From NCBI GenBank assembly GCA_026209155.1, contig GCA_026209155.1_3056.1: a stretch of DNA of 64,000 bases. One strand, written 5' to 3'. Under the pieces are notes generated by a model. That model had not been told where the DNA came from. It made no database searches and saw only the letters and a list, made by a program, of their open reading frames with translations. Each line of letters opens with the position of its first letter. Position 1 is the stretch's first letter. Positions 61,875 to 63,261 of this stretch are shown here, piece by piece. The position numbers and the translations under genes are program-made. The DNA is from a phage.

Positions 61875-62177
61875 TTATTTACCTTTAATTACTTTAGCTG
61901 CTTCGATAGCCGCTTGCTGAAGGTCATCCATAGACATACCGAATTTAGAAGCAAAGTTATCAATTTTCTTTTCGACAGCATTCAAAGGCTTGGCCTGTTT
62001 ACCTTCATTAGCGCCAGGAAGAGCGAGAATACGCTCTTTGTCAATATAAAGGCTTACAAGTTTCTTACGGTCTTTATCGGACAAATCATGAAATGAATGG
62101 GCCTTTTTATTTATAGCGGCTTCTAATTTACCTGCACTCACTCGCGCTTCAGTAATAAATTCTTGATACGTTTTCAT
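61875..62177 (-). CDS. ipII: internal protein II-like (capsid-targeted)
   Basis: 100-aa ORF beginning MKTYQEFITEARV (capsid targeting sequence of T4 internal proteins); rest resembles T4 IPII as recalled. Confidence 0.65.
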   Translation of the reverse strand: MKTYQEFITEARVSAGKLEAAINKKAHSFHDLSDKDRKKLVSLYIDKERILALPGANEGKQAKPLNAVEKKIDNFASKFGMSMDDLQQAAIEAAKVIKGK

Positions 62178-62205
62178 TTTTGTTTCCTTGTTTGTTTTGA
62201 TAGAG

Positions 62206-62239
62206 TAATTATATCATATTAATACTTAAGCGTAAACTG
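62206..62239 (-). promoter_or_regulatory. T4-type early promoter upstream of the ipII-like gene
   Basis: Plus attata 62208-62213 and gtaaac 62232-62237. Confidence 0.5.
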
Positions 62240-62240
62240 T

Positions 62241-62501
62241 TTAAGCTTTACCGCCAGAAATAATTCCGAAGTTGTTAAAATCATATCCAATATCGTCAAC
62301 ATCTACTTTAGGGCTTGCTACAACATAAGCAATTTCACTACGTTTTGCATAGGTGTTTATTTCTCTACCATCGCCGCCTAGGAAAGAATACCCATTACGT
62401 TTTAATGAGACAAAATCTTCGGCATCACCAACGAAAGCTTTAACTTTAAATTTAGGGCCTTTGGCATCTGCTTCAGCGATAAATTCTTGATACATTTTCA
62501 T
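62241..62501 (-). CDS. internal-protein-like small protein with capsid targeting sequence
   Basis: 86-aa ORF beginning MKMYQEFIAEADA. Confidence 0.55.
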   Translation of the reverse strand: MKMYQEFIAEADAKGPKFKVKAFVGDAEDFVSLKRNGYSFLGGDGREINTYAKRSEIAYVVASPKVDVDDIGYDFNNFGIISGGKA

Positions 62502-62507
62502 TTTTCC

Positions 62508-62921
62508 TTAGTAAATTGATTTACCATAGTATTTGTACCAAGTAGGGCGTTGAGCAATTTTTTCATCTAAGCGAGCTTGACTTATCGCAATGGACGCTTC
62601 GGACGGGACATAATTATTACGAAATTCGACAGGGATGTCGGAAATATCCTGGACAGTCGTGTCCTTGATTTTGAAACCACGTTTCAAGCATTCAGCGATT
62701 AGCTCGATTTGACGTAAACGTAAAAATTCGAGTTTGTCGTAAAAGAATGTTACGTGACCTGTGCCTAAGATAAATGTTGGAGAGATTTTAAAATCCTTTA
62801 CACGTTTACCGTTTTGAACATGTTTACGGACTGCACCAAATACGCGTGGTAATTCACGATACTCAGCCATAAGATGTTGGTCGGTCAGTTCAGAAACAAG
62901 TGTTAAATTGATACGAGTCAT
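62508..62921 (-). CDS. denV: endonuclease V (pyrimidine dimer DNA glycosylase)
   Basis: ATG at 62919-62921 with GGAGG RBS gives [34 protein letters not shown]... (137 aa); track ORF starts 4 codons upstream at a TTG. Confidence 0.9.
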
Positions 62922-62946
62922 AATTTCCTCCAAGTAGTTGATGAAT

Positions 62947-62980
62947 GTATAGTATCAAAGTCCTTGGAGGAAGTAAACAC
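62947..62980 (-). promoter_or_regulatory. T4-type early promoter embedded in an SD-containing inverted repeat, upstream of denV
   Basis: Plus atagta 62949-62954 and gtaaac 62973-62978; arms ttcctccaag (62925-62934) and cttggaggaa (62963-62972). Confidence 0.55.
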
Positions 62981-63261
62981 TATTTTTCTGAAGCGCCTGA
63001 GATATATTTTTCAAGACGTTGTTTCATTAGCGAGCCGTTCTTAGCGATTTCTTCTGGTTTATCGCACATACGCAACAAGGCTTCAAGCTTAACGATATCG
63101 CTGGTACGTTCAAATTTGCGAGTATCTATCTTACTAGCAAGTTCAGAAATACGTGCTAATAGACTTTCAGCTTCAACCAAAGCTGCACCTAGCTTAGTTG
63201 CAAATGTGTCAGTAGCTTCGTTAAGAATAGATTCTGATAAAAATTCACTATATGTTTTCAT
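62980..63261 (-). CDS. internal-protein-like small protein with capsid targeting sequence
   Basis: Internal ATG gives [16 protein letters not shown]... (93 aa). Confidence 0.45.

Follow-up and report, generated by a model that had tools for sequence, protein, structure and literature searches.

The e-denV region and its three small genes

In the 64,000-nucleotide stretch of phage DNA analyzed here (hereafter the window), the gene denV is flanked by three small ORFs whose products begin with a common N-terminal motif, raising the question of whether these encode internal head proteins of the T4 type and, if so, what the versions of 86 and 93 aa might do once delivered into a host. The ORFs that an earlier note on this DNA had singled out as bearing the capsid targeting sequence (CTS) were recovered on the minus strand with identical limits, two of them between a vs.8-like P-loop ORF and denV and the third between denV and e, giving the order vs.8-ipII-ip86-denV-ip93-e:

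61222-61761, minus strand: vs.8-like P-loop ORF of 179 aa, the boundary of the locus (PHROG 1488, 1e-78; its position is that of T4/RB69 vs.8)
61875-62177, minus strand: CTS gene of 100 aa, N-terminus MKTYQEFITEA
62241-62501, minus strand: CTS gene of 86 aa, N-terminus MKMYQEFIAEA
62508-62921, minus strand: denV, endonuclease V, a pyrimidine-dimer glycosylase (Pfam PF03013, 3e-14; PHROG 1183, 2e-62)
62980-63261, minus strand: CTS gene of 93 aa, N-terminus MKTYSEF
63258-63746, minus strand: e, T4-type lysozyme, the upstream partner of the 93-aa gene (Pfam PF00959, 2e-13)

The frame of the 93-aa gene reaches back to a TTG at 63276 in the ORF listing, and the ATG at 63261 is the start that agrees with all homologs. 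Comparisons with homologs yielded dN/dS values of 0 to 0.33 for the three ip ORFs, indicating purifying selection, and each of them matches a PHROG family, viz., PHROG 7857 'internal virion protein' for the 100-aa (4.5e-55), PHROG 2667 'internal head protein' for the 86-aa (2.2e-20) and PHROG 3499 'internal head protein' for the 93-aa protein (1.2e-46); given these values and matches, they are real genes. Two plus-strand ORFs (61779-62096 and 62945-63289) were rejected as antisense shadows of the ip genes. T4-type phages have two ip hotspots, the e-denV region and the ipI locus (PMC12373910), and all three CTS genes fall within the first of these, between vs.8 and e. The statement in the earlier note that T4 has ipII and ipIII together after denV is correct (the T4 order is vs.8, denV, ipII, ipIII, e). 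The arrangement in the window is not unusual, being the standard one for Mosigvirus and shared by some Tequatrovirus phages.

The targeting sequence and predicted gp21 processing

The CTS pattern MKx[YF]x[ED]F[ILVMT]x[ED] occurs four times in the six-frame translation of the window, each time at an ATG start, as against a mean of 0.005 when single nucleotides were shuffled (200 replicates) and 0 when triplets were (200 replicates); with four seen against 0.005 expected, the motif is not a chance occurrence. Experiments have assigned its residues Y4 and F7 to targeting and [I/L]8 and E10 to processing by the prohead protease gp21, whose motif [L/I]-x-E closes a propeptide of 10-19 residues (PMC9026906). 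All three proteins of the locus have the aromatic residue at position 4 and the Phe at position 7 (MKTYQEF, MKMYQEF, and MKTYSEF), and a search for gp21 sites, which the earlier note had proposed as a check, places an [L/I]-x-E motif at residues 8-10 of each. The predicted sites (↓) are ITE10↓A in the 100-aa, IAE10↓A in the 86-aa, and LSE10↓S along with LNE15↓A in the 93-aa protein. In this last protein the final cut is more likely to fall after E15 (SILNE↓A), leaving a predicted mature form of 78 rather than 83 aa: across its family E15 is invariant, within either LNE↓A or ITE↓S, whereas E10 varies. The fourth copy of the pattern in the window lies at 17183-17347 in the gene for gp61.1, a conserved 54-aa protein beginning MKTFKEFIKE↓D, which may be an unrecognized fourth packaged peptide.

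In the alignment with T4 IPI, IPII, and IPIII that the earlier note called for, the CTS aligns for all three proteins, and the 100-aa one proves to be IPII itself; the 86- and 93-aa proteins share nothing beyond the CTS with the T4 set.

The 100-aa protein is an IPII ortholog

An identity of 93% over 100 aa with T4 IPII (E 2e-66) identifies the 100-aa protein, at the sequence level, as the ortholog of IPII (Ip2), which the earlier note had missed. The two have in common their length, the CTS MKTYQEFI[A/T]E↓A, and a basic mature part (pI 9.7 here and 9.6 in T4), and differ by seven substitutions and in the placement of the gene, which in T4 sits on the other side of denV and in the window between vs.8 and the 86-aa gene. 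Its only [LI]xE motif lies at residues 8-10, and the predicted mature form has 90 aa. Its exact sequence is found on 224 public contigs, where it is named IpII, and in Pfam/NCBIfam it shows only a sub-threshold match to DUF7412. In T4, IPII is present in ~360 copies per head (PMC9026906), and Ip2 inhibits GmrSD-ECOR21/BrxU (PMC12373910).

Two internal-protein families with unrelated mature domains

The 86-aa protein is 92% identical to RB69 ORF125c, the RefSeq name of which is internal head protein, and its gene occupies the same position directly downstream of denV; nothing of substance differs between the two. The Shine-Dalgarno sequence of the gene overlaps the denV stop (TAAGGAAAAATG), and its dN/dS ranges from 0.10 to 0.33. 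Cleavage is predicted at MKMYQEFIAE↓A, which would leave a mature part of 76 aa with a pI of 6.4; this mature part is present in 218 phage records. An exhaustive HMM search with the family against 1.84 billion representatives returned only 10 matches, the credible ones among which are all small CTS-bearing phage proteins, and the distant members of the family span 94-194 aa, all with a CTS. A 378-aa repeat protein (P0021) that matched through a short repeated KQVKALTGDADD segment was judged to be spurious. Past the CTS, sequence and profile comparison with the T4 internal proteins revealed no similarity; an apparent resemblance of the 86-aa segment KGPKFKVKAF to KGPKFVPKAGKW of IPIII was not supported by profile comparison, the alignment being confined to the CTS. 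The AlphaFold2 model, built from a shallow alignment, is beta-rich and unusable (pLDDT 52).

The 93-aa protein has the very sequence of Lutter gp128 (100% identity) and shares 92% of its residues with RB69 ORF127c, the differences from which are confined to residues 5-12, and its exact sequence occurs on 541 public contigs. It is also related to ip5 (bas37_0261) from the ipI locus of Tequatrovirus (47.6% identity, E 1e-23). The RB69 ORF127c/Ip5 family shares with it a predicted all-helical build and an invariant cleavage site at residues 13-15; however, ORF127c and Ip5 are without the second [L]xE site (residues 8-10) of the 93-aa protein, and Ip5 proper lies in the ipI locus between 57B and trna.4, whereas the copy in the window, the start of which overlaps the e stop codon (ATGA), is translationally coupled to e. 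Outside the CTS, nothing in the mature 93-aa domain aligns with T4 IPI, IPII, or IPIII. The AlphaFold2 model, again from a shallow alignment, consists of three helices (pLDDT 71, pTM 0.35), and a Foldseek search of the PDB with this weak model returned 0 matches. Equating the 93-aa protein with the McrBC inhibitor was considered and rejected, as that inhibitor, bas37_0260, is the neighboring ip6-type gene and not the ip5-type relative.

Neither the 86-aa nor the 93-aa protein matches a family in Pfam or NCBIfam. Searches of the PDB by sequence and family profile gave nothing significant, the best match (E 0.013) being an unrelated helical protein, and the structure models were too weak to point to a mechanism. 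The two proteins are members of families annotated elsewhere as internal head proteins, a label that PHROG and RefSeq agree on, the latter for the orthologs in RB69, SHSML-52-1, and Lutter; these are previously known internal-protein families rather than new ones.

Promoters, stem-loops, and the CTS-coding repeat

The intergenic segments of the locus contain the following regulatory elements:

61800-61875, minus strand: PeSL-like element separating vs.8 from the ipII stop, with TTTACT-N17-TAGTAT within a stem-loop
62208-62236, minus strand: sigma-70/T4-early-type promoter upstream of ipII, TTTACG-N17-TATAAT, TG-extended (scan score 10/12)
62925-62985, minus strand: PeSL-like element upstream of denV, with a TTTACT-N17-TACTAT early promoter inside a CCTCCAAG/CTTGGAGG stem-loop
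63760-63767 and 63773-63780, minus strand: a pair of exact T4 late-promoter boxes (TATAAATA) ahead of e, for both e and the 93-aa gene coupled to it

The element upstream of denV coincides with an inverted repeat (I1) whose RNA fold of -16.9 kcal/mol (z = -2.95) was equaled in stability by 0/200 shuffles, and its counterpart ahead of denV in T4 can be aligned with it. The one beyond ipII folds at -20.3 kcal/mol (z = -3.36; again 0/200 shuffles as stable) and is nearly identical to an element upstream of T4 ipIII; the two elements of the window together form a direct repeat (D4; 81% over 31 nt). With the PST/T4 PeSL consensus given as TTTACW-N17-TAYWAT (PMC4122927), both belong with the PeSL mobile regulatory cassettes (Arbiol 2010; Comeau 2014), which are likewise early promoters in stem-loops flanking variable genes. 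The promoter upstream of ipII differs from these cassettes in having no stem-loop (its fold is no better than that of shuffles, z = 0.5), and the 63-bp spacer that holds it is the site where relatives carry ipIII. Neither the 86-aa gene nor ipII has a consensus late promoter immediately ahead of it, early-type promoters being found instead, which counts against packaging of their products; yet elements of this kind also precede ipII and ipIII in T4, the products of which are nevertheless packaged.

The DNA encoding the CTS is itself repeated:

62148-62177, 62472-62501, and 63232-63261, minus strand: three copies of the CTS-coding repeat (direct-repeat family D2), 90% and 73% identical to the reference

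In a further direct repeat (D1), the match between the first two copies runs on to a total of 71 nt, with 75% identity. These direct repeats of 30-71 nt, along with the early-type promoters ahead of denV-ip86 and ipII, could be read as signs that the N-terminal likeness arose incidentally, through recombination at a conserved 5' segment, with the 86- and 93-aa proteins being ordinary cytoplasmic early proteins that are left unpackaged. We find this very improbable. The amino acids are conserved at exactly the mapped positions, 4, 7, 8, and 10, even in distant members whose DNA has diverged: P0017, P0018, P0020, P0022, and P0023 all start MK[TS][YF]..[FY][IL].E. Moreover, the packaging of IPIII needs its first 10 residues, and CTS fusions bring foreign proteins into the head (PMC9026906), and the promoter type is, as noted above, that of ipII and ipIII in T4.

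Distribution and modular shuffling

At least 80% of the region is covered by 170 phage records, and sequence comparison shows that the proteins and their gene order have been recorded and annotated before in many phage genomes; with identical proteins in the same order in public genomes, the window contributes no new gene or arrangement. Within this common framework the genes come and go as non-essential components, patchily distributed even among close relatives. The 86- and 93-aa genes are absent from T4, the former carries a frameshift in Lutter and survives only as remnants in JS09 and PhAPEC2, and the presence of ipIII varies among relatives at a single junction, with RB69 holding two other CTS genes in that slot. 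This turnover shows an accessory, arms-race pattern.

The denV DNA is only 79% identical to T4 denV and ~90% identical to Mosigvirus alleles, and the DNA of e shares 93% identity with that of T4 e. An assignment of the window to Mosigvirus was rejected: the 30-55 kb segment is ~96% identical to a T6-like Tequatrovirus and includes alpha-glucosyltransferase. The PeSL-like elements and the CTS-coding repeats bracket gene modules, and the identity to other phages is mosaic. We therefore propose that the departure from the T4 order came about through recombination between phages of the promoter-bounded modules in which the genes lie; the difference fits the known modular shuffling at PeSL elements and CTS-coding repeats, the recombination itself being suggested by the mosaic pattern of identity.

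A proposed role in countering host nucleases

We consider it probable that the locus comprises three T4-type internal head protein genes whose products are packaged, cleaved, and injected with a counter-nuclease cargo, a proposal built on the observed motifs, orthology, selection, distribution, and promoter, stem-loop, and repeat anatomy. We infer the packaging, the position of cleavage, the ejection, and the targets of the 86- and 93-aa proteins along the following lines. The N-terminal CTS would bind each protein to the scaffolding core of the prohead, whereupon gp21 would remove it at [L/I]-x-E, after E10 in the 100-aa and 86-aa proteins and most likely after E15 in the 93-aa protein. The mature proteins of ~8-10 kDa would remain in the DNA-filled head and then be ejected with the DNA into the next host. 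There, the 100-aa protein, as IPII, would be expected to block a modification-dependent (type IV) restriction enzyme of the BrxU/GmrSD type as it does in T4, whereas the 86- and 93-aa proteins would present unrelated cargo domains on the same delivery tag, each most likely inhibiting another first-response nuclease aimed at modified T-even DNA.

The suggestion in the earlier note that proteins of this class are injected counter-defense factors is the current view in the literature (PMC12373910; 10.1101/2025.11.20.689424), and the idea is thus already published. T4 Ip1, Ip2, and Ip3 inhibit GmrSD type IV restriction enzymes, a different one in each case (Silas 2025, PMC12373910), and Bas37_0260, another CTS protein, inhibits McrBC (HIDEN-SEQ preprint 2025, 10.1101/2025.11.20.689424). 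The window proteins resemble T4 IPI*, IPIII, and Bas37_0260 in their delivery logic (CTS tag, gp21 cleavage, and co-injection), which is here predicted from the genes, in their genomic hotspots, and in their small size, IPI* having the same 76 aa as the predicted mature 86-aa protein; in contrast, the sequence similarity of the 86- and 93-aa proteins to these three is limited to the CTS.

An alternative is that the 86- and 93-aa proteins are packaged for the sake of the virion itself, serving core or scaffold assembly or packing on the condensed DNA, with no anti-defense target. Such a role would accord with the historical view of internal proteins as DNA-associated head proteins, with T4 IPIII mutants, in which the rate of head assembly is about halved and the burst is ~40% of normal (PMC9026906), and with the lack of a target found for ip4-10 (PMC12373910). 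However, a basic mature protein, a classical though not strictly defining feature of the class, is seen in the T4 internal proteins (pI 9.0-9.7) and in the IPII ortholog but not in the 86- and 93-aa proteins, whose mature pI of ~6.3-6.4 (8.1 for the latter if cut after E15) makes neutralization of DNA charge unlikely. The genes are also dispensable and patchy, being absent, frameshifted, or decayed in the phages named above, and all four or five CTS proteins of known function are restriction inhibitors. We regard a purely structural role as improbable. Our literature search turned up no virion proteome that includes either of these two families, which, like the near-neutral charge and the negative results for ip4-10, weighs against our main proposal.

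A somewhat better case can be made for the two proteins as injected inhibitors of a defense other than type IV restriction, e.g., an abortive-infection, signaling, or nuclease system acting at DNA entry, although we still hold this to be unlikely. Homology to a characterized inhibitor is seen in the 100-aa protein (Ip2), but for the mature domains of the other two no resemblance to Ip1, Ip2, Ip3, or the McrBC inhibitor could be detected, and their neutral charge sets them apart from the T4 internal proteins. Further, ip4-10 of T4-like phages gave no reproducible inhibition of the tested GmrSD variants (PMC12373910), a set that includes the relative of the 93-aa protein if its numbering matches that of ip5 in GenBank. 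On the other hand, all characterized members of the class are directed at modification-dependent nucleases, Silas et al. regard both ip loci as dedicated to GmrSD variants (PMC12373910), and the tests so far cover a small part of the diversity of GmrSD and McrBC. Owing to the near-neutral charge, the unrelated folds, and the negative ip4-10 panel, we allow a minor chance that one or both of the proteins are injected inhibitors of a defense that is neither GmrSD nor McrBC. The inhibition of further nucleases directed against modified T-even DNA is the reading we prefer for both families.

Implications

Among phage molecules, the internal proteins are the first that the host cytoplasm encounters, and they now appear as a dedicated arsenal against modification-dependent restriction enzymes. 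The cassettes of the window comprise IPII, an ORF125c-type, and an ORF127c-type protein, with ipIII absent at the locus, and listing the internal-protein cassettes of a phage in this way helps to predict its host range, e.g., for phage therapy.

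Three internal head protein genes around denV

The ORF listing and direct reading of the sequence bear out the earlier note's three small ORFs with the capsid targeting sequence (CTS) of T4-type internal head proteins (IPs), and the coordinates match its placement of two of them between the P-loop ORF and denV and one between denV and the lysozyme gene e. Its statement that ipII and ipIII stand together past denV in T4 also holds (vs.8, denV, ipII, ipIII, e). The genes are as follows:

61222..61761, P-loop vs.8-like ORF, bounding the locus
61875..62177, minus strand, ipII orthologue, 100 aa, MKTYQEFITEA
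62241..62501, minus strand, 86-aa internal-protein gene, MKMYQEFIAEA
62508..62921, denV, interleaved with the CTS genes
62980..63261, minus strand, 93-aa internal-protein gene
63258..63746, lysozyme gene e, bounding the locus
17183-17347, minus strand, fourth CTS-motif ORF, 54 aa, MKTFKEFIKE/DMVAGDSGG..., with an acidic Lys/Glu-rich tail

The vs.8-like ORF, denV, and e were confirmed by Pfam and PHROG matches. A six-frame scan with MKx[YF]x[ED]F[ILVMT]x[ED] returned four matches in the window, all at an ATG, against a mean of 0.005 in shuffled windows. The three genes of the locus have dN/dS values of 0-0.33 against their homologues and are thus genuinely coding; the ORFs overlying them on the plus strand were rejected as antisense shadows. 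The fourth match, directly upstream of the primase gene 61, is the T4 gp61.1 orthologue with one residue different. It belongs to PHROG 1823 ('unknown function') with no internal-protein annotation, and a literature search found nothing linking gp61.1 to the CTS.

Families of the three proteins

In BLASTP comparisons with T4 IPI, IPII, and IPIII, the 100-aa protein matches IPII over its full length (93% identity), marking it by sequence as the IPII orthologue, whereas the alignments of the 86-aa and 93-aa proteins end within ~11 to 18 residues of the N-terminus; when the 86-aa family profile was compared with those of IPIII and IPI, residues 1-11 were likewise the only ones to align. All three nevertheless fall into 'internal virion/head protein' families, namely PHROG 7857 (100-aa, 4.5e-55), PHROG 2667 (86-aa, 2.2e-20), and PHROG 3499 (93-aa, 1.2e-46), and neither Pfam nor NCBIfam holds a model for the latter two. 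Their closest named relatives, RB69 ORF125c (92% identity to the 86-aa protein), RB69 ORF127c (92% to the 93-aa protein), and phage Lutter gp128 (100% to the 93-aa protein), are termed 'internal head protein' in RefSeq. The 93-aa protein is also related to ip5/ipV (47.6% identity, E 1e-23), which occupies the classical ipI locus in many Tequatrovirus phages. An HMM of the 86-aa family, run exhaustively against 1.84 billion representative proteins, recovered a handful of small phage proteins only, each with its own CTS-like start (MKTYNEFIAEA, MQTFHEFLVEN, MKSFDQYIMES, MKTFQEFINEA, or MKTYAEFLAEA). Structure prediction gave weak, uninformative models of the 86-aa (pLDDT 52) and 93-aa (pLDDT 71) proteins; Foldseek with the 93-aa model had no PDB matches, and PDB searches by sequence and family profile yielded nothing significant.

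The 90%-identity cluster of the 86-aa protein is represented by a denV sequence and also contains denV proteins of 137 aa, such that cluster-level names for the 86-aa protein can mislead. This looks like a clustering artefact; the two kinds of members may be linked by P0011, a fragment of 54 aa that is annotated as denV and resembles the last third of the 86-aa protein, at its C-terminus.

Targeting and cleavage signals

In mutational work on the CTS, targeting depended mainly on positions 4 and 7, and processing on positions 8 and 10, with the prohead protease gp21 cleaving after the Glu of [L/I]-x-E (PMC9026906). Y4, F7, [I/L]8, and E10 are kept in all three window IPs, and the gp21 site sought past the targeting sequence is found in each as [L/I]-x-E at residues 8-10, where cleavage is predicted for the 100-aa and 86-aa proteins. 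The 93-aa protein has an additional such site, LNE15/A. In its family E15 is invariant, as LNE/A or ITE/S, and position 10 varies: RB69 ORF127c has N there, Ip5 has K, and one relative has V. RB69 ORF127c (2926-3204 of the RB69 locus record) and the 93-aa protein (window 62983-63261) show seven differences, all within residues 5-12 (RB69 ORF127c begins MKTYMNFYQNLS), and are identical past residue 12; judged from these sequences, the propeptide was swapped or diverged independently of its cargo. From these three features we infer that the propeptide is 15 residues long, comparable to that of T4 IPI (19 residues), and that the mature form has 78 aa.

Predicted mature sizes are 90 aa (IPII orthologue), 76 aa (86-aa), and 78-83 aa (93-aa). 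The mature IPII orthologue would be basic (pI 9.7), whereas the 86-aa (6.4) and 93-aa (6.3 or 8.1) products are predicted to be near neutral, unlike the T4 IPs (9.0-9.7). A literature search found no virion proteome for the 86-aa or 93-aa families, and the gp21 and scaffold genes lie outside the 64-kb window; packaging, cleavage position, and targets of these IPs are predictions.

Expression signals

Gene e is preceded by two exact late-promoter boxes (TATAAATA) and its stop overlaps the start of the 93-aa gene (ATGA), so the 93-aa protein is expected to appear late, along with lysozyme. A T4 early-type promoter precedes denV, and the 86-aa gene follows downstream with its Shine-Dalgarno overlapping the denV stop; a separate promoter (TTTACG-N17-TATAAT) serves ipII. 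Since T4 ipII, ipIII, and denV share this type of upstream element, an early-type promoter is no argument against packaging. An exact TATAAATA box also occurs inside ipII (62108-62115, minus strand, 63 nt past the start), but is probably fortuitous given six such matches in the window against 11.5 expected by chance.

Distribution and origin of the gene order

Megablast with 61200-63800 matched 760 phage records, 170 of which span 80% or more of the query, and 66 records contain the ipII-to-86-aa junction in one piece. The annotation of Mosigvirus SHSML-52-1 gives the same order (vs.8, ipII, 86-aa, denV, 93-aa, e), and in mogra and Tequatrovirus SP1 the genes ipII and 86-aa are separated by an extra ipIII of 579 bp, located exactly where the window has its 63-bp spacer (62178-62240). 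By tblastn, there is no ipIII at the locus or elsewhere in the window. The mature 86-aa and 93-aa domains occur in 218 and 497 phage records, respectively. All three exact sequences are already public, the 93-aa protein in 541 contigs ('Internal head protein'), IPII in 224, and the 86-aa protein in one NCBI record.

In RB69, ipII is replaced by two other CTS genes, ORF123c (MKTYQEFIAAV) and ORF124c (MKTYKEFIAES). These products of 109 and 90 aa, encoded in the vs.8-denV slot (1450-2120 of the RB69 record), both belong to PHROG 3966 ('unknown function') and are annotated as hypothetical; position 10 of ORF123c is Ala, not Glu.

In Lutter (2467-2722 of its locus record), a frameshift divides the 86-aa gene into 41-aa and 51-aa 'internal head protein' annotations, just the final 23 codons of the gene remain in JS09 and PhAPEC2, and metagenomes contain short internal-deletion variants of its product (36-60 aa; P0010, P0019). 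Such decay favours an accessory role in an arms race.

The window at 30-55 kb is ~96% identical to T6-like Tequatrovirus, and 59489-64000 is strongly mosaic in identity: vs.6-vs.8 is closer to RB69 (95%) than to T4 (90%), denV is closer to Mosigvirus alleles (~90%) than to T4 (79%), and the stretch running from the 86-aa gene through e shares 99% identity with SP1 and 97% with Lutter. Two elements punctuate the locus:

61800-61875, promoter and stem-loop between ipII and vs.8 (fold z = -3.36, better than 200/200 shuffles)
62925-62985, promoter and stem-loop upstream of denV (fold z = -2.95, better than 200/200 shuffles)

They are direct repeats of each other with the promoter TTTACT-N17-TA[C/G]TAT, and the former is almost identical to one upstream of T4 ipIII. 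Both fit the PeSL cassettes (early promoters embedded in stem-loops), at which, as Krisch and colleagues proposed, recombination shuffles modules within the hyperplastic regions of T4-type phages. Their paper, which also notes that PST and T4 differ in their IPs, gives TTTACW-N17-TAYWAT as the PST/T4 consensus (PMC4122927). The CTS-coding DNA, a direct repeat of 30-71 nt at all three ip gene starts, may be a second recombination substrate. Judging from this anatomy, the departure from the T4 order would reflect modular shuffling by recombination at PeSL elements and CTS-coding repeats.

Predicted counter-defence roles

The T-even IPs were described as diverse defence proteins sharing solely the CTS (Rao and Black, PMC3012670), and T4 requires IPIII to infect ECOR17 (Srikant et al., PMC9391042). 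Each of Ip1, Ip2, and Ip3 inhibits a different GmrSD type IV enzyme and gives no cross-protection, and GmrSD variants were proposed as targets of all genes in both ip loci; ip4-10 showed no reproducible interaction with further GmrSD variants (Silas et al. 2025, PMC12373910). McrBC is inhibited by Bas37_0260, a CTS protein of the ipI locus (HIDEN-SEQ preprint, 2025, 10.1101/2025.11.20.689424). Bas37_0260 is of the ip6 type, and it is the neighbouring bas37_0261, of the ip5 type, that is related to the 93-aa protein; no function therefore transfers to the 93-aa protein.

The earlier note's suggestion of injected counter-defence proteins matches this literature: its observation is confirmed, and its interpretation is broadly right and already known. 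The target of the IPII orthologue is very probably a BrxU/GmrSD-ECOR21-type enzyme, and the best reading of the 86-aa and 93-aa proteins is as putative injected inhibitors, most likely of type IV enzymes. Because T4 IPIII inhibits GmrSD-ECOR17 and the window has no ipIII, we predict that this phage is sensitive to that enzyme, unless ipIII lies outside the window. The locus is IPII plus two already-annotated IP families, in an arrangement common to many sequenced T-even phages.
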